DNA of 59,345 nucleotides, filler included, from Chloroflexota bacterium (GCA_043754535.1; 5 parts of 5 records of this genome joined end to end with filler, not necessarily neighbours in it), one strand, 5' to 3'; numbered from the whole stretch's first letter, positions 3,485 to 56,042 are shown. Numbers and translations are program-made. Notes: generated by a model from the letters alone, not told the origin.

Positions 3485-3584
3485 NNNNNNNNNNNNNNNN
3501 NNNNNNNNNNNNNNNNNNNNNNNNNNNNTTAATTAATTAANNNNNNNNNNNNNNNNNNNNNNNNNNNNNNNNNNNNNNNNNNNN
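3485..3584. other. Artificial contig linker
   Basis: N-run + TTAATTAATTAA (stops in all frames) + N-run, 100 bp. Confidence 0.98.
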
Positions 3585-14053: not shown

Positions 14054-14153
14054 NNNNNNNNNNNNNNNNNNNNNNNNNNNNNNNNNNNNNNNNNNNNTTA
14101 ATTAATTAANNNNNNNNNNNNNNNNNNNNNNNNNNNNNNNNNNNNNNNNNNNN
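14054..14153. other. Artificial contig linker
   Basis: N-run + TTAATTAATTAA + N-run. Confidence 0.98.
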
Positions 14154-45653: not shown

Positions 45654-45753
45654 NNNNNNNNNNNNNNNNNNNNNNNNNNNNNNNNNNNNNNNNNNNNTTA
45701 ATTAATTAANNNNNNNNNNNNNNNNNNNNNNNNNNNNNNNNNNNNNNNNNNNN
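45654..45753. other. Artificial contig linker
   Basis: N-run + TTAATTAATTAA + N-run. Confidence 0.98.
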
Positions 45754-46913
45754 TAGAGGCTGAGGGTGATCTGCCCCCCCTCTGGCGTGTACTTGACTGC
45801 GTTGCTGACCAGATTGAGCAGCAGTTGACGTAGTTGGTCAGCGTCGCCAATCACGCTGGCGGTGTCCTCATGGCCGAGGGTGACGCGCAGATCGTTGCCT
45901 GCCATTACCTTCGCCTGCTTGTAAGCATCTAGCAGCAACGTGTCCAATTCTACCACACGGCGCAAGCGGTCGGTATCCTGTCGCTGGCGAGGGGTAGGCG
46001 CGTCCAGTTGGGCTAGTAGCAAGAGATCATCTACGATGCGGCTCATGCGGATCGCCTCGCTCTCGATAGAGCGCAGCGCGTCCTCCCGCTCTGGGCCGTT
46101 GGGCAGGCGGTGTAGCAGGGCGGCATTGCCCCGGATCACGGTCAGGGGGGTACGCAACTCGTGCGAGGAGTCGGCCACGAAGCGTTGTTGGAAGGTGAAG
46201 GCGAGTTGTAGACGATCCAGCATTCGGTTGAAGGTGTCGGCTAGCTGGCCCACCTCGTCTTGGGTGCGCTGGCCCGGCACGCGTTGGCTGAGGTCTTGCG
46301 AAACCTCAATCTTCTGGATTGTAGTGGTTACTCTAGCAATAGGGGCGAGGACGCGGCGGGTGAGCAGAAAGAGGATGGCTAGCGAAGTAACCAGGCTGCC
46401 GAAGCCGACCAGCACCATGATCAGGGCCAACTGCGTCTCTCCATTCTGCACCTCGGCCAGCGACTGCGCGACAACGGTTACACCAACGATGCGCCCCTCG
46501 TAGTGGAAGGGAGTTGCCAGCACCCGCACTGGCGCGCCGCTCTTTGGCACGTCGTAGAGGTTGGGGCTGCCGCTGAGAGCCTGGTTGACTACCGTCTCGT
46601 TGACCAGTTGCTTACGCATCGTTTGGTTTTCGAGGTCGATGAAGGATTGCCCCTGCTTGTCTAGTACATCAATGAAGATAGAGGGGGCTGCAAAGGTGTC
46701 GAGCAGTGGTATCTTGATCGTCCGCTCGCCAGTAAATTGGTTGATGACGGTCACGGCACTGGCTTCCAGCGAACGGGCGGTGTTCTGCAAGCTGGTGTCG
46801 AGGCTGTCGTGTAGGTTGCGGCTAAAGATGCCGTAGACGATCAAGCCAAAGAGGATGATGGTGACGGCGAAGAAACTGCCGTAGAAGGTGATCAAGCGAG
46901 TGCGGATAGACAT
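45754..46913 (-). CDS. Membrane sensor histidine kinase (HAMP-HisKA-HATPase), 3' truncated
   Basis: 2 TM, DEVGQLA.TFN.ML.RL, SHELRTPLT, QLLLNL.SNAVKYT. Confidence 0.95.
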
Positions 46914-46915
46914 GG

Positions 46916-49900
46916 CTACGGCTCCATCTCCTCACCGACGGACGGGTGCGCGATCTCGTCGTGCAGCGTGGCAGCGCGGGTGGCAACGGATGCTGCCTCG
47001 GCGGGGCGGCCCTGCGCGTCAAGGAAGGCGGCATAGCAGTCGAGGCTAGTAGCAAGCTCGGCCTTGAAGCCACTCCCTTCCAGCAGTTCTATGCTACGTA
47101 GGAAGCTAGCCTCCGCCTCCTCTGTACGCTGCAAGGCGGCTAGCACCAGGGCGTAGGCCCGGCTGGTGGTCGCCTGCGAGTAGGGGTCGTCGTCCAGCAC
47201 AACATCGCGGGCGATCTCGGCTTGGGCCAGCGCAGCATCCAGTTCACCCTGCCCCAGGTGCGCCTCGGCCAGGCCGCGCCGAATCTCTGGCAAGAGATTG
47301 CGTTCGCCCATAGCCGTGCTGATCGCCAACGCCTGCTGGTAGTGGGCTACTGCGGCTTCGTAGCGGCCCAGGGCAGTGAGGGCCAGGCCAAGCGCATGGT
47401 GCGCGTTCACCTCGGCCAGCTTGTAGCTCATCATAGTTGCTAGCTCTAGGGCTTGGCCCGCTGCCTCTATCGCCTCGCTGAACCAGCCCAGATAGTAGCG
47501 GGTAAAGCCCAGATTGACCAGCGTGTTGGCCTGCTGCCGCCTGTCGCCCAGGTCTTCGAGCAGTAGCAGCAGGGTGCTGGCTAGCCGCTCTGCCTTGTAG
47601 AAGTCTGGTCTGGTGTAGTTATAGACGAATATTTGCGAGTTCAGGGCGCGAGCCTGGGTTGCTTTATCGTCGATCAGGCGAGCAATCGCCAACGCTCCAT
47701 GCACCATCTGCTCCGATTGCTCTGGCGCGCCGAGGGTGCCGCCGCTGGAAGCGTAGATGTCGGCCAGAGCAAGGAGGATGCGCGCTTCGTTCTTCTTGTC
47801 GTCCAACTGCCTGAACAGGTCGAGAGCCTGCTGGTGGAAGTAGGCAGCGGTCTGCATATCCCCTCTACTATGAGCTAGCTGACCAAGCACCCAGCACGAC
47901 TGTGCTTGTATGTCGAGGGCTGACAGCAAGACAGAGAGATAGTACATCTTCCTGATTTGTTCAGCAGCCGAGTCAAGATTGCCCATCTGCATATCAGCAT
48001 TGGCCCGCATCCAAATCATGTCGAGGTGTAGCCTTGTCTCTACAAGGTTTGGTGGCAGTAGTGCCAAAGCCCGGTGGCAGTGGGACTGTACCACCTGATA
48101 ATCTTGCAGAGCAATCGCGTTCTCTGCGACCAGCTTGAGGTAGATGACCGCCTTCTCCGCCAGCCGTTGCTGCTCCTCGCCCGCAACCAGCACGTTGGAG
48201 CCTGCCAGCGTAGCAGCCTGCTCGTAGTGGTAAGCGATGCGCTCGGCCAGTTCGTTGCGGCGGTCGCCAGCTGCTCGTTCCAGCCAGGCCGCCGCGTACG
48301 CGTGCTTCTGGCTGCGGCTGGCGCGGGGTAGCATCTCATAAGCAACATCGTGGGTGAGGGCGTGACGAAAGTTGAACTCATCCTCGCCTGCAAAGTCGGA
48401 CTGGCTGGCTGGCTGCACCAGGTTTTTCTCGGCCAGGCTGTGCAGATGGCCGTTTAGCTGGCTAGCGGTCAATCGACCCTCAAGCATGGTGCTGACCGCC
48501 CCTGACCAGAAGGTGCTACCCATCACCGCTGCATTTTGCAGGATGCGCTTCTGCTCGGCAGGCATCAGGTGGTCTATGCGGGCAGTGAGCAATGCCTGGA
48601 TCGAACCGGGGATTGCTAGCCGTTCACCGATATCAGCCACCGCCCGCCAGCGGTTTGCCTCACTGACGATCAACTGGTTATCGATCAGGCTGCGGATGAT
48701 TTCCTCAACGAAGAAGGGATTGCCATCAGCCCGCTGCACAATCGCCACTTGCACTGCTTCTGGCAGCGCATCCACCAGCAGCAGGGCGTTGACCAACTGG
48801 CGGCTCTCGCTGTCGTTCAGCGGTTGGAGGTCGAGGTTGAGATCGCAATTGAGCAACCACTGCGGTTGGGCCTCGCGCAAATCTGGGCGGCTGGCACAGA
48901 GGATCAGGGCTGGTACGTCGTGCATTCGGGCGGCAAGATCAGCGATGAAAGTGAGCAACTCTGGCTTGGCCCAGTGGATATCCTCAAAGAAGATTAGCAG
49001 TGGGGCGAAGGCTGCCTTGAGGCCGAACCAGGTGCGCCAGGCCCAGGCTACCTCCTCGCGTAGGCTGGTAGGGCTAAGGCTGTCTAGGCCGCTGCCACTC
49101 AAGCGCAGATTGACGTTCCAGCCGAGGCGGGCGGCAAGCTGGCGCGCATCCAACACCGCACCTGCCCGTGTAACTGCCCGCTCAACCCCGCTCAATAGTT
49201 TCGCCTCCGCTTCAGCCCGCGTATCGCTATCGCGGATGGAGCAGTCATCCTTCAGCATCTCGCTCAGGGGCCAGTGGGTTATCTCTTGACCGAAGGGCAG
49301 ACAACGACCGCGAATGAGCAGAGCTGGGTTTTCGGCTACGCCAAGCTGGGCGTGGAACTCAGCCACCAGGCGTGACTTGCCCTGCCCTGCTGCGCCCCAG
49401 AGGGTGACAAGAGCCGGTTGGCGAAGGGCCACGACCTGCTCGAAAGTGCCGCTTAGCTGCTGCAACTCGACCGCTCTGCCGACCAGTGGTGCTGCCAGAC
49501 CTTCGCCAGCCTTCACCTTGCCACCTTGCTGGCGCACCCCGACGAGGTGGTGGAGGGGTATTGGCTCTTGCTTGCCCTCGATGCTAACCGCTGCCAGTGG
49601 CTCAAATTGGAAGAAGCTGCTGGTCAGGCGGTAGGTGCTGTCGCTAACTGCGACCCGCCCAGGGCTGGCTTGCGCCTGCACACGGGTGGCAACCAGCAGG
49701 GTGTCGCCGGTGATAGTGTAGCTCTGGCTCTGGTCGCTGTGCAACACCCCAGTGACGGCGGCTCCTGTGTGCAGGCCAATCCTCATCTTCAGCACAATCC
49801 CGCGTTGTTGCTCAAGCCGCGCCGCGAAGCTGCCCAACACCTCTTGCATCGCTAGCCCACAGCGGACAGCGCGCTCTGGGTCGTCACCATGCGCGATTGG

Positions 49901-50215
49901 TGCGCCGAAGTAGGCGAGAATTGCGTCGCCCGCGAACTTGTCCACCTTGCCACCGAAGCGCACCACCTCATCAGCCAACAGGCCGAGGCACTCGCTCATG
50001 ATCTCCTTGACCGCCTCCGGGTCGAGTTGCTCAGACATGGCGGTGAAACCAGAGACATCCGCCGAGATAGCGGTGACTACCCGCCGCTCGTCCTCAGCAG
50101 CGACGGGCGCGAGCAGGCGACTACCGCATTGCCCGCAGAACTTCATCCCATCTGGGTTATCAAATTGGCAGGTTGGGCATTGCAAGGGCGTGCGCTCCGC
50201 TGCTGAGCTTAGCAT
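46916..50215 (-). CDS. Zinc-ribbon + class III nucleotide cyclase + STAND/AAA ATPase + TPR protein
   Basis: CPTC..N....KFCGQCG, ADVSGFT, DKFAGD, GAAGQGKS, EDIHW, GNPFFVEE, F.FRHAL..DVAY, C-terminal TPRs; start may be TTG 50185. Confidence 0.93.
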   Translation of the reverse strand: MLSSAAERTPLQCPTCQFDNPDGMKFCGQCGSRLLAPVAAEDERRVVTAISADVSGFTAMSEQLDPEAVKEIMSECLGLLADEVVRFGGKVDKFAGDAILAYFGAPIAHGDDPERAVRCGLAMQEVLGSFAARLEQQRGIVLKMRIGLHTGAAVTGVLHSDQSQSYTITGDTLLVATRVQAQASPGRVAVSDSTYRLTSSFFQFEPLAAVSIEGKQEPIPLHHLVGVRQQGGKVKAGEGLAAPLVGRAVELQQLSGTFEQVVALRQPALVTLWGAAGQGKSRLVAEFHAQLGVAENPALLIRGRCLPFGQEITHWPLSEMLKDDCSIRDSDTRAEAEAKLLSGVERAVTRAGAVLDARQLAARLGWNVNLRLSGSGLDSLSPTSLREEVAWAWRTWFGLKAAFAPLLIFFEDIHWAKPELLTFIADLAARMHDVPALILCASRPDLREAQPQWLLNCDLNLDLQPLNDSESRQLVNALLLVDALPEAVQVAIVQRADGNPFFVEEIIRSLIDNQLIVSEANRWRAVADIGERLAIPGSIQALLTARIDHLMPAEQKRILQNAAVMGSTFWSGAVSTMLEGRLTASQLNGHLHSLAEKNLVQPASQSDFAGEDEFNFRHALTHDVAYEMLPRASRSQKHAYAAAWLERAAGDRRNELAERIAYHYEQAATLAGSNVLVAGEEQQRLAEKAVIYLKLVAENAIALQDYQVVQSHCHRALALLPPNLVETRLHLDMIWMRANADMQMGNLDSAAEQIRKMYYLSVLLSALDIQAQSCWVLGQLAHSRGDMQTAAYFHQQALDLFRQLDDKKNEARILLALADIYASSGGTLGAPEQSEQMVHGALAIARLIDDKATQARALNSQIFVYNYTRPDFYKAERLASTLLLLLEDLGDRRQQANTLVNLGFTRYYLGWFSEAIEAAGQALELATMMSYKLAEVNAHHALGLALTALGRYEAAVAHYQQALAISTAMGERNLLPEIRRGLAEAHLGQGELDAALAQAEIARDVVLDDDPYSQATTSRAYALVLAALQRTEEAEASFLRSIELLEGSGFKAELATSLDCYAAFLDAQGRPAEAASVATRAATLHDEIAHPSVGEEMEP

Positions 50216-50245
50216 CAAGGTATGGACATCCCATTATAACACAAC

Positions 50246-50276
50246 AAGGGCAATGGCAAACCGCGCCACTGCCCTT
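50246..50276 (-). terminator. Hairpin downstream of peptide genes, next to the extended -10 (TGtTATAAT, 50233-50241) of the cyclase gene
   Basis: AAGGGCAaTGGC...GCCAcTGCCCTT inverted repeat. Confidence 0.55.
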
Positions 50277-50308
50277 TCTAATCAGGAACTAACTTACAGG
50301 CTGCTAAC

Positions 50309-50440
50309 CTAGCAGCTACCACCACCGATACCAGGAGGGCCATCTGGCACCCCACCGTTCAGGTAGGCTTCTGGCACAGACTCCTTGTGTGCTACTACGC
50401 TACCGCGCAACAGACCAAGCAAAAAGGCGAAAAACTTCAT
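50309..50440 (-). CDS. Unannotated 43-aa peptide MKFFAFLLGLLRGSVVAHKESVPEAYLNGGVPDGPPGIGGGSC
   Basis: GGAGGTG RBS before ATG; hydrophobic N-terminus; last 9 aa identical to the neighbouring gene with synonymous codon differences; below ORF-track cutoff. Confidence 0.85.
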   Translation of the reverse strand: MKFFAFLLGLLRGSVVAHKESVPEAYLNGGVPDGPPGIGGGSC

Positions 50441-50542
50441 TCTATACACCTCCCACTCTGCCTAAGGTGTTGAACAACCGCTGGGCTGCATCGTAGCAGA
50501 ATGCGGTTCAGCTGTCAAGTGCGGCTTAGTTTCGGGCTAGGG

Positions 50543-50815
50543 CTAGCAGCTACCTCCACCAATACCAGGCGGGCGGTCTATACCTACCCCGCCCTTGCTG
50601 CCGAGCGGGAAGATGCCAGACTTGCTGACGCGCTCATCAAGTTGGCCGAGGTGCTGTTCCATGCTCCCTGCGTCCCCGTTGAGGAGGGAGTGGCGTTCAG
50701 CTTCGCTGAGGTCGTAGCCCGCGAGGGCCGAGTCGGGGTCTTCCATCATCTGTTGGCGGAAGCCGTCGTCGTCCAACATCTGGTCGAGGACGGTTCGCAT
50801 CGCATCGCTACTCAT
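50543..50815 (-). CDS. 90-aa NHLP-clan (Os1348/Franean1_4349-like) leader peptide protein, putative RiPP or signal precursor
   Basis: AAGGAG RBS, ATG 50815; D..FR.....DP..AL.GYDLS..E...L......LDERVSKS leader, then GIFPLGSKGGVGIDRPPGIGGGSC; TGcTATAAT at 50941-50949. Confidence 0.85.
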   Translation of the reverse strand: MSSDAMRTVLDQMLDDDGFRQQMMEDPDSALAGYDLSEAERHSLLNGDAGSMEQHLGQLDERVSKSGIFPLGSKGGVGIDRPPGIGGGSC

Positions 50816-50985
50816 CTTGTTGCTCCTTAGTTGAATTGTTGCGTCGCTCACAGGTTATATAGGCAGCCCGGCACACTTTGCTTCACTGCTTGCGCCGCTT
50901 GCGCCCGCATCAGCCCGCGGTTACCTACCAGCCCTGCCCTATTATAGCATAACCACAGGGGCGAGGCTGTGCATCGCTCTGTCAG

Positions 50986-53496
50986 CTAGCGCAGGGGAAC
51001 TGCCTCAAATGCTCGGCGCACGACTTTGGATAGTTCACCACGCTTGATGCCATCGTTGGGCCGGAAGCAGTTGCCAGCACCACCGCTGCAAGTTGCGCCG
51101 CTGATGATGCCGCGCCCGACCAGGGTCTCTACCGCCTCATAGCCGAAGCTACCAACTGGTAGGTCAATGAAGCTGGGGCTGACGGGGGTGAACACCCCGT
51201 AGTTGCGGATGCGTTGCACGATGATCGCTACCTGCACGCGGGTGATGTTCAGGTTAGGGGCGTAGCAAGCCCCCTGCTGGCCGAGGGCGGTGCATTGGGC
51301 GGCACTCAGGCCGTTGATCGCCCCTGCGTGAACTGCTGTCTCGATGTAGCCGAAGAAGGGGCTGCTAGTTGGCACGTCAACGAAGGTGGGGATGTTGGTG
51401 CTGAAGGGGGGTAGGCCAAAGCCCACTGCCGCGATTTTGGCGAACTGCCCGCGATTGGTCGGGCTGTTAGGCTCAAAGCGGAAGCTGCCGTCACCGTTGG
51501 CGAAGCCGCTGATCGCTGATCGACAGGCAAGGAATACGATGTCGTTGTAAAAGATGTTGCTGCTCGGCACGTCGGTGAAGGTGCCACAGGGGGCAGGGGT
51601 GAAGGTCGGGCCGGGGGTGCTGGTTGGCTGCGGCGTGCTGGTCGCTGCCGTGCCACAATCGCCCACGCCCTGGTTACGCACGTAGATGTGGAAGTTGCTT
51701 ACCTCCTCACCCATGTAGAAGATGTGGTCGGCTCCACAGACACTGAGCAGGAAGGGCAGGTCGTGGCGCACCCCATTGCTGACCAGCACGGTGCGGCTGC
51801 CGAAGTTCTCCTCGCTGTAGTAGATGTCCTTCACTGTGTCCCCTTCGACCCAGGCGACGCGGGCCTGGCCCCCATTGAAGGAGAGAGCTGGTACGGTGGA
51901 GGTGTCTCCGGTGTTAGAGGCATTCGTGGCGGTAGCGGGCCATGTGCCACTGCTGGCCGTCCACCGTTCGTAGTAGATTTCGGCTTGGCCGTTGGCGTTC
52001 TCCTGCCAGACGATGCCTACATCACCGTTGTTGGCCGCTGCAATGAACGGCCAGTAGGTGCGCCCATTGCGCCGTTCGCCGAACGTCCAGCTACCATTGC
52101 TGCTCTGGTCTGCTGTGTTGATCGTCAGGCCGTAGCGCATCCAGACTACGTGCAGGCGACCTGCCGTGTCAACCGTAGCGACACTAGCTTGCGAGAGGCT
52201 GCTGGTGTCACCTTGTGGCAACCAGTCGGGGCCATTCTGCCAGCTTGCCCCACCGTCGTAGGAGACGCGGTAGTAGATGCGCCCAGCGACGGTGCTGCCG
52301 CTGTCCTCGCGCAGGGTGTAGAAGACGTGGATGCTACCGTCGGGCTTGACTGCGATGCCGGGCGAGTTGGTAGTGCGCCCACTGTAGCTGGTGACGAAGG
52401 TACTGCCGTTCCAGGTGGCGGTGGCGAAGGTGTACTTGACCAGCTTGATGTTGCCCGTGCTGCCAGTGTCGGCCCACACTGCGTAGCCGGTTGCTCCATC
52501 AGGGCTGACGGCGAGGGCGGGGCGGTAGTTGGTGCTGTTACCACCGGGGATTGCCGCCTGCGAGTTCCAGCTTGCCCCACTATCGAGGCTGCGTGCGCTG
52601 CCAATGCCGCCAGTCACGTTGCCCGTCGTCCAGGTAGTGAGGATGTTCTGGCGGCCTGCTGCAAAGGGATACTGCGAAGGGCCAGTCAGCGAGATGTCAG
52701 TCGCGCCGCCGAAGTTGGCAGGTCGCATCTCGCTGGTTTGCTGGCTTACGCTGTCACCTGCTGCGCTCCCGCTGGGGCTGGTCAGGCGGAGGCTGGCAAA
52801 GCGGAGACCGCTGCTAGCCTGGCTGATGAGGCCGCCCCGCCCGCCGCTGTAACTGGCATCGCGCACCTGGCCGACCTGCTGGCCGTCTACGAACACGCGG
52901 AGATTGTCGCCCTGCACTTCGAGGCCGAGCGTCGTCCATGCGTTGCGGGTGTAACCGTCGGTTAGCTGGCTGGCACGGGCAAGCAGGGTGTAATCACCCT
53001 TCGCTGCGTCGTAGCGATCCAGTTGCCAGCTTGCCTGGTTGAGGTTGGCAGCACCCCGCGTCAGGCGATAGTAGCCAGCGGAGCTGTAGCGGGCGACGAG
53101 GCCGAACGAGCCTGCGGCCTGGCTGCCGAGGGCAACGGCCTCCACCCGATAGTTGCTGCCGCCCGCTAGCCTGGGCAGAGCAAGCGTGTCGAAGTAGCCG
53201 TTGGCGAGTGAGGCGGTGCCGTCGAGCCGTAGCAGCCCATCATCTAGCCGCCAGCTAGCTGGGTAGTCTACTTCCAGCCCAGTCCCAATGTTCACGAAGT
53301 CGTAGTCGCCCAGAGCAGCCGCGTTGCCGAAGCTGCTAGTGTAGAGCGTCTTGCCCGCTGAGATGGGGAGAGTAGGAGCTGCTGCTAGTCCTGCTTTGCT
53401 CGCTGCTGCCGGGCTGCCACCCAGTAGATAGCAGAGGGCCGCCAATAGTGCCACTGTCGCGATCAACATCTTCGACCGATTACTGTAACCGCTCAT
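50986..53496 (-). CDS. Secreted SLH-anchored protein with lectin-like beta-sandwich and BNR/Asp-box propeller
   Basis: Signal peptide; FGLVARY..W.TL.LEV.G...RVFVDG (ConA/DUF1080-like); SLDSGASW and SYDGGASW Asp-boxes; PT linker; triple SLH. Confidence 0.87.
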   Translation of the reverse strand: MSGYSNRSKMLIATVALLAALCYLLGGSPAAASKAGLAAAPTLPISAGKTLYTSSFGNAAALGDYDFVNIGTGLEVDYPASWRLDDGLLRLDGTASLANGYFDTLALPRLAGGSNYRVEAVALGSQAAGSFGLVARYSSAGYYRLTRGAANLNQASWQLDRYDAAKGDYTLLARASQLTDGYTRNAWTTLGLEVQGDNLRVFVDGQQVGQVRDASYSGGRGGLISQASSGLRFASLRLTSPSGSAAGDSVSQQTSEMRPANFGGATDISLTGPSQYPFAAGRQNILTTWTTGNVTGGIGSARSLDSGASWNSQAAIPGGNSTNYRPALAVSPDGATGYAVWADTGSTGNIKLVKYTFATATWNGSTFVTSYSGRTTNSPGIAVKPDGSIHVFYTLREDSGSTVAGRIYYRVSYDGGASWQNGPDWLPQGDTSSLSQASVATVDTAGRLHVVWMRYGLTINTADQSSNGSWTFGERRNGRTYWPFIAAANNGDVGIVWQENANGQAEIYYERWTASSGTWPATATNASNTGDTSTVPALSFNGGQARVAWVEGDTVKDIYYSEENFGSRTVLVSNGVRHDLPFLLSVCGADHIFYMGEEVSNFHIYVRNQGVGDCGTAATSTPQPTSTPGPTFTPAPCGTFTDVPSSNIFYNDIVFLACRSAISGFANGDGSFRFEPNSPTNRGQFAKIAAVGFGLPPFSTNIPTFVDVPTSSPFFGYIETAVHAGAINGLSAAQCTALGQQGACYAPNLNITRVQVAIIVQRIRNYGVFTPVSPSFIDLPVGSFGYEAVETLVGRGIISGATCSGGAGNCFRPNDGIKRGELSKVVRRAFEAVPLR

Positions 53497-53546
53497 TTGT
53501 TATTCCCTCCACGCTATTATGCCAAAAAGACGATCAAGCCAGTATG

Positions 53547-53575
53547 ATTGTAGCACTGGAGTGATCGCCTGTCAA
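53547..53575 (-). promoter_or_regulatory. Sigma-70 promoter for SLH gene
   Basis: TTGACA-17-TACAAT with TG extension. Confidence 0.7.
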
Positions 53576-53759
53576 TAGCCCTGCGGTAGTAAGCCAGGCT
53601 GTGGCAAGGTACTTCTTGTACGTAAGAGTGTATCCAGGGTTAGTTTGGCTTTGCAGCAGCGTAGCTATGCTGAGGAGTTCAGGTCTGCAAGGACAGCCCC
53701 AACAAGCTGCTTTGCGGTGTCGTTTGTCAATGCCGACCGCAAAGCAGCTTGTCTTCAGG

Positions 53760-55490
53760 CTACGCTTGCAAGTCCTGCTCAACCCGCCGCTTCATAATCC
53801 TCACGCTCAGGTCGCCAGGGTAGCGTTGGCCTGCCAGAGTAAGCAATGCGCTGGCAAAGCGGGGGTGGCCTACGTTGTAGTAAGCGCGGGCGAGGGCAAG
53901 GTAGCCAACCATTGGCATCTCGTAGAAGCCAGGCAACTCGCTGAACTCAAAGCGCGGCTGCTCCTTGACGACTGTCATGAACTCGACCAGCGCAGACCCC
54001 TGCCGCTCGGCATAGCTGTACTCAATAGCCCGCCAGGCGTGTTCGCGTAGTCTATTGCCGCCATCCTCCACCAGCACAGTCGGTTGGTTGAACACGGTGT
54101 CAAAGTCCAGCGGTGTGTTGCTGACTGGCAGCGGCACATCCGCCTGCTGCGCATCCTCATCGGCATAGCTCAACTCGTAGTGCTGGCTGCGACTGATGGT
54201 AGCGACCACTAGCTCTGGCTCCACCCCCTTGCTACTGACGGCAACCAGCTTGCGCCCGCGGTTGAAGGAGGACAGTGCTGGATTAATCAGCCCATATCGC
54301 TTACCTAGCAGTGCCACTGCCAGCCCCAGCACTACCATGCCCACAGCCCACAGCGTGTCGTTGTTGCTGACTGGCCGATTGACCAGCACAGTAGCCGCCA
54401 CCCCATTGTCACCGCCCGCTGCATTGATTGGCTGCGCTCCCCCCTGCGTCTGGCTGATGATCAGCGGGGTTGGGCTGGGGGTTAGGCGTGATAGGGTTGG
54501 GGCGGCGGTCACTAGTGGGGCTGCCACCGTTGGCAGTGCATCGGCCAGTAGCCAGGAGATCCCAGCACGCTCGGCAACTGGTAGCTGCTCATTAGGCATA
54601 GGTATCTGCTTGCTGGCTATCGCCTCCAGGCTGGCAAAGCCATAGTCGAGCAGCAGCTTGCTATCATCGTACCACTTAGGGCTGTGCAGCACGACGGAAA
54701 TCAACCGCTGCCCATTGCGGGTAGCCGAACCGACCAGGCAGAGGCCTGCGTTGTCGGTCAACCCAGTCTTTACCCCATCAGCCCCAGGGTAGCGAGAGAG
54801 CAGTTCGTTAGTATTGAGCAGGTAGTGGCCGGGGATCGTGTAGCTGCTGCTACGCACTATTTCGGCGAAGGTAGGGTTGTGCATCGCGTACCAGGTGATG
54901 ATCGCCAGGTCGTAGACACTGCTGGTGTGATCTTCTTCATCCAGGCCATGCGGGTTGCCGTAATGAGTATCGTGCATCCCTAGCTTCTGGGCCTGCTGGT
55001 TCATCAAGGCCACGAAGCGTTTGAGCGGGTCTTTTTCGCCTGCCGGTTCGGTCAGCCGCGCCCCAACGTGGCGGGCAATCGCCATTGCCGCATCATTGCC
55101 GCTGGGCAGCATCATCCCGTAGAGCAGATCGTGCATCGTCTGCTTCTCGCCGACCGCTAGACCCATCACCGACTCGCCAACCTCATCATCCACACCGCCA
55201 GTCACGACCTCGTCTGGGCTGCTGTGTTCGAGGGCAACGATGGCAGTAGTAATCTTGGTGGTGCTGGCAATAGCGATGATGTCGTGGGGAACCTTGCTGT
55301 AGAGGATGCGCCCACTGTTATAGTCGATCAGGATCGCAGAGCGTGCCTCAATCTGGGGTAGCGGCGGCCCAGCTAGCTCCGCAGCAGCTGGCTGGGGGTA
55401 GCAGATAGATAGCAGCCAAGCCAACATCAGCAGGCGTAGCCCTTGACCGTACAGATGGCCCCGGCGGTCGATGATCTTCAACTTCGGCAT
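53760..55490 (-). CDS. D-Ala-D-Ala carboxypeptidase (peptidase S11) with TM and cytoplasmic C-terminal extension
   Basis: ASTTK (SxxK), SGN, NPHGL, GVKTG motifs; TM WAVGMVVLGLAVALLG. Confidence 0.9.
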   Translation of the reverse strand: MPKLKIIDRRGHLYGQGLRLLMLAWLLSICYPQPAAAELAGPPLPQIEARSAILIDYNSGRILYSKVPHDIIAIASTTKITTAIVALEHSSPDEVVTGGVDDEVGESVMGLAVGEKQTMHDLLYGMMLPSGNDAAMAIARHVGARLTEPAGEKDPLKRFVALMNQQAQKLGMHDTHYGNPHGLDEEDHTSSVYDLAIITWYAMHNPTFAEIVRSSSYTIPGHYLLNTNELLSRYPGADGVKTGLTDNAGLCLVGSATRNGQRLISVVLHSPKWYDDSKLLLDYGFASLEAIASKQIPMPNEQLPVAERAGISWLLADALPTVAAPLVTAAPTLSRLTPSPTPLIISQTQGGAQPINAAGGDNGVAATVLVNRPVSNNDTLWAVGMVVLGLAVALLGKRYGLINPALSSFNRGRKLVAVSSKGVEPELVVATISRSQHYELSYADEDAQQADVPLPVSNTPLDFDTVFNQPTVLVEDGGNRLREHAWRAIEYSYAERQGSALVEFMTVVKEQPRFEFSELPGFYEMPMVGYLALARAYYNVGHPRFASALLTLAGQRYPGDLSVRIMKRRVEQDLQA

Positions 55491-55632
55491 TTACACAAAA
55501 CCTCTGTGGCTGGCGCAGCCCTCGCCTGCGCGGACATTCCCCGTTGGCCCTATTATAGCACGTTACCGCCAGATTGCAATAGTTATGTCACGTTATTAGC
55601 GTAAACTCAAGGGACAGCCAAGAGCAGGCAGC

Positions 55633-55666
55633 AAAAAGCCCGCTAGCCTTAGCAGCCAACGGGCTT
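55633..55666 (-). terminator. Intrinsic terminator for 35-aa peptide gene
   Basis: AAAAAGCCCG...CGGGCTT; hairpin plus U-tract on the minus strand. Confidence 0.65.
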
Positions 55667-55701
55667 CGCTCTACCTACTGTGTGACAGGTCAGCAGCATA
55701 G

Positions 55702-55809
55702 TTACGCCGCCAGCAGAACATCTACCTCATCACGAATGGGGCCGAGCGCGGTAGGGGTGTAATAGTTAGCTAGCGTAAACAAACCAAGTATCCTAAACAA
55801 GAGCTTCAA
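55702..55809 (-). CDS. Unannotated 35-aa peptide MKLLFRILGLFTLANYYTPTALGPIRDEVDVLLAA
   Basis: AGGAGG RBS 7 nt before TTG; consensus promoter upstream and terminator downstream; not in ORF track. Confidence 0.65.
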   Translation of the reverse strand: MKLLFRILGLFTLANYYTPTALGPIRDEVDVLLAA

Positions 55810-55876
55810 GCATATACCTCCTAACTTGGAATGATGTCCTCTCCCTAGGACTGCTGTTTGTTAGACAGCATGAGCA

Positions 55877-55905
55877 ATTATAGGGCCAAGCAGCAGTTTT
55901 GTCAA
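55877..55905 (-). promoter_or_regulatory. Perfect consensus sigma-70 promoter
   Basis: TTGACA-aaactgctgcttggccc(17)-TATAAT on the minus strand. Confidence 0.8.
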
Positions 55906-55942
55906 TAGTCACCTGACACCACACAGGGTCTTTTCGTAAAAC

Positions 55943-56042
55943 NNNNNNNNNNNNNNNNNNNNNNNNNNNNNNNNNNNNNNNNNNNNTTAATTAATTAANN
56001 NNNNNNNNNNNNNNNNNNNNNNNNNNNNNNNNNNNNNNNNNN
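55943..56042. other. Artificial contig linker
   Basis: N-run + TTAATTAATTAA + N-run. Confidence 0.98.

Follow-up and report, generated by a model that had tools for sequence, protein, structure and literature searches.

Two small genes that lie side by side in a Chloroflexota genome begin with unrelated N-termini and end with the same peptide, PPGIGGGSC. The question raised by this locus is why one short peptide should be carried by two different proteins, and what might read it. The window, by which the whole stretch of 59,345 nucleotides from Chloroflexota bacterium (GCA_043754535.1) is meant, consists of five contigs joined by runs of N, and both genes are located on a 10,189-bp contig at positions 45754-55942. 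Gene A (50543..50815) encodes a 90-aa protein ending ..KGGVGIDRPPGIGGGSC, and gene B (50309..50440) encodes a 43-aa protein ending ..NGGVPDGPPGIGGGSC. Both genes, like all other features of the window described below, are on the minus strand. Translation confirms the two ORFs and the common tail, which had been pointed out in an earlier note on this DNA, and the strong ribosome binding sites ascribed to the two genes are also there. The Shine-Dalgarno site of A, AAGGAG at 50823..50828, is 7 nt 5' of the ATG and is identical in the sister species; that of B, GGGAGGTG at 50447..50454, is 6 nt 5' of the ATG. In what follows, G000 is the source genome, G001 is the sister species, and G002, G003 and G004 belong to a sister genus of the same bacterial family.

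The product of gene A comprises a predicted helical domain of ~66 aa, a linker (SKSGIFPLGSKGG) and the tail (VGIDRPPGIGGGSC). The assignment of its N-terminal part to the NHLP-clan leaders, made earlier from the sequence pattern, is borne out by the NF038399 model (Os1348 family, NHLP clan), which matches residues 5-64 with 48.5 bits at a cut-off of 40 (E 6.8e-13) and has no other member in the source genome. The scores of three further models are under their thresholds: TIGR03793 (NHLP leader family) gives 14.2 bits for a cut-off of 50.9, TIGR04509 is likewise under its cut-off, and Frankia_peptide PF14407 gives 35.5 bits for a Pfam gathering threshold of 48. The protein database lists PF14407 for A at a looser threshold. 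A HMMER search of 1.84 billion representatives with A returned 246 proteins at E<=0.001, which share a conserved domain of ~65 aa ending ..L(D/E)ER.SK and continue into very diverse C-termini. In the AlphaFold model of A, the mean pLDDT of which is only 64.7, helices occupy residues 3-66 and the tail is unstructured and of low confidence. The top sequence match to A among solved structures is Os1348 itself (PDB 6LK7, E 0.003). With the model, Foldseek returned only weak rows, none at E<=0.001: the LigA-like DesB, SonA and a proteusin precursor.

The product of gene B begins with a short hydrophobic N-terminus (MKFFAFLLGLLRGSVVA), from which a spacer leads to the tail (VPDGPPGIGGGSC). The N-terminus had been described as hydrophobic and signal-like. 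The short hydrophobic stretch is real, but a signal peptide is not established: the uninterrupted hydrophobic stretch spans 6-9 residues, is followed by Arg/Lys and makes a poor classical signal peptide. Upstream of B there is a sigma-70-like promoter at 50490..50518 (TTGACA-17 nt-TACGAT, with TG before the -10 hexamer), which scores 10/12 matches, where shuffles are expected to yield 0.3. A hairpin resembling an intrinsic terminator is predicted 3' of B at 50246..50276, and after it comes TGTTATAAT, in which a -10 hexamer for the next gene can be read at 50238-50233. B has no family match by HMM and Pfam searches, a word search for relatives returned B alone, and the ESM Atlas gave no usable match. 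The locus was found in 11 sequencing runs from eight studies, none of them RNA, which bears neither way on expression. Programmed read-through from A into B was considered and rejected, as the TAG that ends A has another TAG after it in the same frame and B possesses a promoter of its own. A reading of the region as an RNA element was dropped after an Rfam scan of 49900-51200, in which nothing came near the threshold. Positional counterparts of B with matching tails are present in three sister-genus genomes. By these observations both A and B are real small genes, each apparently transcribed on its own.

A six-frame scan for GGG.C-stop in the 132 contigs of the genome (3.87 Mb) gave 18 matches. 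As PPGIGGGSC is found in just two of them, namely at the C-terminal ends of A and B, chance does not explain the pair. The two tails are arms of a direct repeat, and the deletions described below occur between them: copy 1 is at the end of A (50543..50590) and copy 2 is at the end of B (50309..50353; GGV..PPGIGGGSC-stop). In the source genus, Gly-Gly precedes both tails (KGG|V and NGG|V). The last 11 codons of A and B differ by four synonymous changes and one non-synonymous change (R/G), and the codons of the nine identical residues by three synonymous changes and no non-synonymous one. The synonymous differences listed in the earlier note (GAC/GAT, CCG/CCT, ATT/ATC and GGA/GGT) are all real, and the codon comparison agrees with its view that they reflect protein-level selection and not a recent DNA duplication.

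Relatives of A were searched for in 40 further genomes, 41 including the source, a tally that takes in the unpublished G007, G012, G015 and G034, of which no further use was made. A close homologue is present in all four of the other members of the bacterial family. The leaders of the sister-genus proteins are 48-51% identical to that of A and the tails are different: GQGWGGGGPGTGT in G002, PGWTIGGDSSSGGSIDGPGWTIGGN in G003 and GPGWGTGGTGPGWGTGGTGM in G004. These tails consist of PGWxxGG repeats, contain no Cys and are not preceded by the Gly-Gly motif. PPGIGGGSC with its terminal Cys is confined to one genus, and the suggestion of a single conserved core does not hold beyond it. What does recur in the sister genus is that a long-leader and a short-leader protein share one tail. 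In G002, G003 and G004 a second small gene, B', lies between A and the next large gene, and its tail matches that of its own A. The B' protein reads MLRIIRMFASIFSGRIVASAQPFS + PGWGVGGDSTGGGGTDGPGWNVGGV in G003, MLSFIKMLAAIFNGRITVADARDSA + GWGGGVGSGGTG.. in G004 and ..GGGGGTGT in G002, where the gene is incomplete at the contig end. Counting the partial gene of G002, a B-type small gene is present in four of the five family genomes and in both genera.

The B' gene of G003 has a promoter with 11/12 matches (TTGACA-17-TATCAT), a ribosome site (GAAAGGAGA) and its own terminator, and the B-type promoters of G000 and G003 share the form ACTTGACAGC..TGCTAYSAT. In G002 and G004, B' is on the opposite strand, convergent with A, and must therefore be transcribed independently. 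A bidirectional terminator between the two genes was found in G004 only; there, the stop codon of B' is lost and the frame reads on through the terminator. Duplicated DNA flanks both A and B' on the 3' side in G003, namely the terminator together with a 30-nt element that is 93% identical. B and B' have N-termini of similar length and hydrophobicity, with a common pattern of G-R/R-G followed by V-A. Since the similarity of B to B' across the genera is not significant (shuffle P 0.09-0.16), a common origin of these genes rests on position, promoter and architecture. Within the sister genus, the N-termini of B' from G003 and G004 are significantly alike (0/5000 shuffles), with pS 0.59 and pN 0.19 over only 16 codons.

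The tails of A and B' in G003 have 16 of 25 residues but only six codons in common (pS 0.90, pN 0.23), and the leader of A shows pS 0.225 and pN 0.025 between G000 and G001. Together, the codon comparisons of the G003 tails, the source-genome core, the leader of A and the N-termini of B' indicate that the tail is kept by protein-level selection. The shared C-terminal tail of A and B is what selection preserves, and the codon patterns show tails that are under purifying selection and are not products of recent DNA copying. The earlier note knew of no description of the core motif, and none was found in the literature.

The genes that accompany A and B give an indication of what might read the tail. 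Ninety-one nucleotides after the end of B starts the ORF of a large protein (46916..50218) in which Pfam identifies a zinc ribbon, an adenylate/guanylate cyclase (Guanylate_cyc), an AAA_16 (STAND) ATPase and TPRs. The ORF has 1100 aa, and the start given in the database makes it 1089 aa. It is followed by a histidine kinase gene (45754..46913), which is cut by the contig end. According to Pfam and hydropathy, the kinase has two hydrophobic segments flanking a loop of ~130 aa, and then HAMP and HisKA domains. The same order, from A to the STAND protein, the histidine kinase and a response regulator, is found in G001, G003 and G004, where the REC+GerE response regulator gene overlaps the end of the kinase gene. 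The block of five genes, encoding A, B, the zinc-ribbon/cyclase/STAND-ATPase/TPR protein, the membrane histidine kinase and the LuxR-type response regulator, is conserved in both genera. Orthologues of the STAND protein with 42-49% identity are confined to the same bacterial family, and beyond it the identity is ~32%. The flanks outside the block differ by genus, with SLH/BNR and DD-carboxypeptidase genes in one and an ECF sigma factor, a helicase and Kelch/SLH genes in the other. In G000, G001, G003 and G004, the Pfam matches within the block and on either side of it contain no peptide-modifying enzyme or exporter and no ATP-grasp protein; a ComQ-like prenyltransferase is likewise absent from the Pfam matches of block and flanks. 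These genes are not surrounded by a RiPP cluster: the conserved partners are the cyclase-STAND-TPR protein, the histidine kinase and the LuxR-type regulator.

B is not present in every strain. G001 has a single gene that combines the leader of A with the tail codons of B, the alignment showing an in-frame gap of 237 bp with its ends within the shared GGxGGGGT. A metagenome scan with an alignment of A gave three loci, all from near-identical strains; it uncovered no wider diversity and revealed the deletion form. At locus L017 the protein is identical to A and A's own tail is kept, with the next 234 bp missing; at locus L018 both A and B are present. In sequencing runs X9 and X10, from two studies, one contig each connects 50308 directly with 50543, so that 234 nt are absent, and 12 letters fit both sides. 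Assembly of runs X5 and X6 is interrupted at each of the two tail copies, and the short contigs bearing B (282 and 267 nt) have depths of 8.1 and 4.6 for flanks of 16-19 and 19-21, respectively. This pattern is expected if forms with and without B coexist, contig depth being a weak measure. The two different breakpoints indicate two independent losses of B. As B is missing in G001, in L017 and in the contigs of two runs, it is not essential to the block, and A is intact in every form. Comparison of these loci shows that B is dispensable and has been lost in some strains, with in-frame deletions of 234 or 237 bp, through recombination between the two tails, A being always kept. The 43-aa ORF, the lack of which at homologous loci would by the earlier note count against its reading, is retained in part: the sister species and several environmental strains are without the 43-aa ORF. 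Matched tails on unrelated N-termini, selected and yet mutually deleting, make this locus a clean small case of the sharing, upkeep and loss of a peptide module.

The association of A with a STAND protein can be followed further into the phylum. NF038399 has matches at E<=1e-5 in 147 of 401 sampled genomes and over the cut-off in 83 of them, the tally taking in the unpublished G185 and G267, of which no further use was made. In f5 and f8, two families of the same class, 25 of 26 loci have a 72-aa Os1348-like gene directly after the gene for a Guanylate_cyc(x2)-AAA_16-TPR protein of 1430-1480 aa; these neighbours were confirmed by Pfam at five loci and by tblastn at the rest. The 72-aa proteins end ..SKSAGRGF(F/I). 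In family f11 the order is a GAF-kinase, a receiver, a zinc-ribbon-cyclase-AAA_16-TPR (STAND) protein and two Os1348-like genes, both ending GFFRLGP. The phylum sample provided 40 further loci, nine of which were set aside because the domain is within a large or multi-copy protein. At 11 of the remaining 31 loci, a large TPR protein of the NTPase/STAND type is encoded at most 1.2 kb from the Os1348-like gene. One of these neighbours is a cyclase-AAA_16-TPR protein, two combine BTAD with AAA_16 or NB-ARC and TPR, and eight have TPR and a C-terminal BTAD. Pfam does not call an NTPase domain in these eight; one of them, at locus L091, has a P-loop-like GYGKT near its N-terminus. At one more locus the neighbour shows TPRs only. 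Five families account for the 11 loci, with seven of these in f31, so that relatives are not independent samples; the small proteins of f31 have ~70 aa and are without a Gly-rich tail.

Other neighbours of the Os1348-like genes in the phylum encode radical-SAM, P450, ABC-ATPase, peptidase, Rce1-like, cNMP-binding, HD_5 and LuxR-type proteins. The base rate of the large proteins is low, with 2-13 BTAD matches per genome of 4.8-6.6 Mb and eight NBD paralogue matches in the 3.87-Mb source genome. Searches by tblastn with the STAND domains of the source are insensitive at this distance (cyclase/NBD found at 4/40 phylum loci, TPR at 1/30 class loci), and Pfam scans of the neighbours were used instead. 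These surveys show that Os1348-like small genes recurrently adjoin large NTPase/TPR (STAND-type) proteins in at least eight Chloroflexota families. No description of this pairing was found in the literature, and searches for Franean1_4349, for NHLP with STAND/SARP and for NHLP with adenylate cyclase/TPR gave nothing relevant. A B-type gene carrying the tail of A was not found beside the STAND-linked genes of f5, f8, f11 and f31, and B-type genes were encountered only in the bacterial family of the source.

By combining these observations, it is possible to outline how the block may work. We tentatively favor a reading, to which we give somewhat less than an even chance, in which the tail is a recognition peptide, serving for docking or as a signal, that is read by the signalling block, with A and B as its two carriers in a self-signalling circuit. 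In the cytoplasm, A would present the tail on a helical carrier, folded and LigA-like, and its putative target is most likely the TPR sensor of the STAND cyclase. B, by means of its short hydrophobic N-terminus, would take this peptide either to the membrane or out of the cell, and there the external loop of the kinase (~130 aa) could sense it. The proposal of the earlier note that one peptide may be produced by two routes is a fair idea. A complex prediction for residues 225-1089 of the STAND protein with A gave a score of 0.00 (mark 0.32), which bears neither way on binding. If the tail is the ligand, it would be a natural peptide input for the large and poorly understood class of cyclase-STAND-TPR proteins, and a synthetic peptide and the TPR domain would make a simple testable pair.

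The same genes can be read as a classical RiPP system. A, with its long NHLP-clan leader, and B, with its short one, would then be precursors of one modified and probably exported peptide, the enzymes and exporter being distant or unassembled, and the STAND cyclase, the kinase and the LuxR regulator would merely be pathway regulators. GGGSC is a Gly/Ser/Cys-rich sequence of the kind used by azole-forming enzymes, and the leaders are conserved while the tails vary between the genera, as this reading would have it. It also draws on the family to which A belongs by its score, the prototype of which, Os1348, is presented as a protein thought to be post-translationally modified (PMC7726476), and on the Gly-Gly before both source-genus tails, which is like the end of NHLP leaders as described by PMC2887384. 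The radical-SAM, P450, ABC-ATPase, peptidase and Rce1-like genes beside other Os1348-like genes of the phylum point in the same direction, and since STAND/SARP-type regulators are common as pathway regulators of biosynthetic clusters, adjacency to a STAND protein is predicted by the RiPP reading as well. Of the enzymes sought, none was found in the source genome. No maturase is encoded on the contig, as had been noted; the contig has only ~10 kb, and the models for SagB-type (TIGR03605), HExxH (TIGR04267) and YcaO (PF02624) proteins also have no match in the whole source genome, which is only 88.9% complete, a figure that leaves room for distant enzymes. Among five relatives, two of them complete single-contig genomes, HExxH and YcaO were found in none and a SagB-type protein in one (G335), ~2.5 Mb from the small gene. 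Peptidase_C39 is absent from five genomes, G000, G001 and G003 among them, and was found in seven control genomes; the YcaO model was positive in five control genomes. A search for LanC-like proteins gave 0/5, the control genomes being silent too, and is hence uninformative. YcaO, SagB-type, HExxH and C39 are all unmatched in G000, G001 and G003, and the two complete genomes with STAND-linked Os1348-like genes are also without YcaO, HExxH and C39. Neither the block nor its flanks in three relatives contain a modifying enzyme or a transporter, and the sister-genus tails have neither a preceding Gly-Gly nor a Cys. A RiPP with distant enzymes is weakened by these results, obtained genome-wide for the YcaO, SagB-type, HExxH and C39 models, and is less likely than not; it is a serious rival of the recognition-peptide circuit.

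It may also be that A alone is of importance, acting as a small partner of the STAND cyclase, and that B arose as a by-product when the 3' end of A was partially duplicated and acquired a promoter and a start codon, so that B would have little or no function and would be in the course of being lost. The strains without B (G001, L017 and the contigs of X9 and X10 joined across the 234-nt skip), the intact A in all forms, the missing relatives and family matches of B, the B' of G004 that runs through its terminator without a stop codon and the duplicated 3' flanks in G003 would all be accounted for in this way. So would the non-significant similarity between the N-termini of B and B' and the STAND-linked Os1348-like genes of f5, f8 and f11, which are without a B-type companion. 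A relic is nevertheless hard to reconcile with a B-type gene in four of five family genomes (G002 partial) of both genera, with promoters of the same form in G000 and G003, and with the tails of A and B' in G003, which are saturated at synonymous sites and yet keep 16 of 25 residues, unlike a neutral relic. The B' N-termini of G003 and G004, significantly alike and with pN 0.19 lower than pS 0.59 (16 codons), also argue against it, and we regard a relic as quite unlikely.

The recognition-peptide circuit, which we continue to prefer, might be one case of something wider. In Chloroflexota, small proteins of the Os1348/NHLP type may be dedicated ligands or regulators of STAND-ATPase/TPR sensors and not antibiotic precursors. 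At this locus they would form a self-signalling circuit, the tail being shown to the cyclase-STAND protein on A and delivered by B to the membrane or the exterior for the kinase, and tail recombination would keep populations mixed for the exported form. This would be peptide signalling of a new type, in which a STAND cyclase is coupled to a two-component system. In this full extent the proposal is rather a long shot. Long-leader peptides of the NHLP clan are usually read as antibiotic (RiPP) precursors and their enzymes are sought by genome miners; the partners found here are signalling proteins.

Several known systems resemble parts of this block. A is predicted to be, like Os1348, a small helical protein (85-90 aa for the two) whose C-terminal part is flexible, and Os1348 is described as a dimer with a six-helix structure and an unknown mechanism (PMC7726476). 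In the operon reported for Os1348 of Pseudomonas sp. Os17, genes for a GNAT acetyltransferase, an HExxH peptidase and a SagB-type dehydrogenase are downstream (PMC7726476), whereas the neighbours of A are signalling proteins and the HExxH and SagB models are unmatched in the source genome. A companion gene that puts the tail on a short leader is also absent from the prototype. With the NHLP/Nif11 precursors, as presented by Haft et al. 2010 (PMC2887384), A shares what is predicted to be a long folded LigA-like leader, and the short variable tail. Further features in common are that a pathway has several precursors and, in the source genus, that Gly-Gly precedes the tail. Unlike these precursors, A is far under the TIGR03793 cut-off and no C39 ABC exporter or cyclodehydratase was found. 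Moreover, A and B differ in their leaders and share the tail, whereas the usual NHLP pattern is the reverse, one leader with many cores. The Frankia_peptide family was defined in a 2009 survey of ATP-grasp proteins and neighbours an ATP-grasp ligase (as cited in PMC8939145). The LigA-like group of ECOD is reported to unite ComX, Frankia_peptide and Nif11 (PMC12353581).

As in the ComX-ComP-ComA system of Bacillus, a small precursor adjoins a membrane histidine kinase and a LuxR-type response regulator. The ComX pheromone derives from the C-terminus of ComX. The block of A and B differs from that system in being without a ComQ-like prenyltransferase and in having the additional cyclase-STAND-TPR gene and a second short gene. 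The RRNPP pro-peptides (Phr, PapR, NprX and AimP) are encoded by genes of ~40-50 aa next to the gene of a TPR protein and have a hydrophobic N-terminus, with the active part at the extreme C-terminus. B, with 43 aa, likewise adjoins a TPR-bearing STAND gene and has a hydrophobic N-terminus and a conserved, presumably active, extreme C-terminus. The TPR protein of the block, however, combines a STAND ATPase with cyclase as its output and is not an RRNPP regulator; the signal peptide of B is doubtful, and the tail is also borne by A, a putative cytoplasmic carrier. The whole may thus be a self-signalling circuit that works like ComX/ComP/ComA or like the RRNPP pro-peptide systems, and is a member of neither.

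The window is composed of five assembly contigs (C86, C87, C88, C89 and C94) and does not represent a single piece of DNA. The contigs are joined by paired 44-N spacers at window positions 3485-3584, 14054-14153, 45654-45753 and 55943-56042, and adjacency of genes across different blocks is therefore not implied. The contig carrying A, the 90-aa Os1348-family gene, and B, its 43-aa neighbour with the same PPGIGGGSC tail, also encodes a DD-carboxypeptidase (window 53760-55490, minus strand). Its residues 45-270 match Peptidase_S11 in Pfam, and its C-terminal extension of about 300 aa has no Pfam match.

Contigs covering the A/B region are present in four public environmental runs (X5, X6, X9 and X10). 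All four differ from window 50150-50950 at the same five bases and by the same 1-nt deletion, and thus represent a single closely related lineage, separate from that of the assembled genome.

In the sister genus, the second small gene, B', has a tail matching that of its own A. The B' stop codon is lost in genome G004, where TTA occupies the position of the TGA of G002, and the frame reads through for about 29 residues across a bidirectional terminator (L003 1267-1473, plus strand). In genome G003, a 30-nt element containing a palindrome is found after the A terminator and again after the B' terminator (L005 1850-1880 and 2200-2230; CACCTAAA..TACCATTAAGGTACAATTTA), the two copies being identical at 28 of 30 positions. 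This element may serve as a regulator binding site or may only belong to the duplicated 3' flank.

Elsewhere in the phylum, each of five consecutive large ORFs (343, 1022, 868, 818 and 1463 aa) in locus L092 (G123:C20:21626-41459) matches the Os1348-like leader profile; this array was left out of the phylum neighbour count. In one genus of f5, a related family of the same class, a gene for a 1221-aa HEAT-repeat protein (L050 3278-6943, minus strand) comes after the 72-aa Os1348-like gene; this neighbour is not shared by the other f5 genera. At three loci in other families (L062, L064 and L067), the Os1348-like gene lies directly downstream of a DUF5317 membrane protein. At two more (L063 and L065) it follows a cNMP-binding protein, which may represent another recurrent link of Os1348-like genes to signalling.
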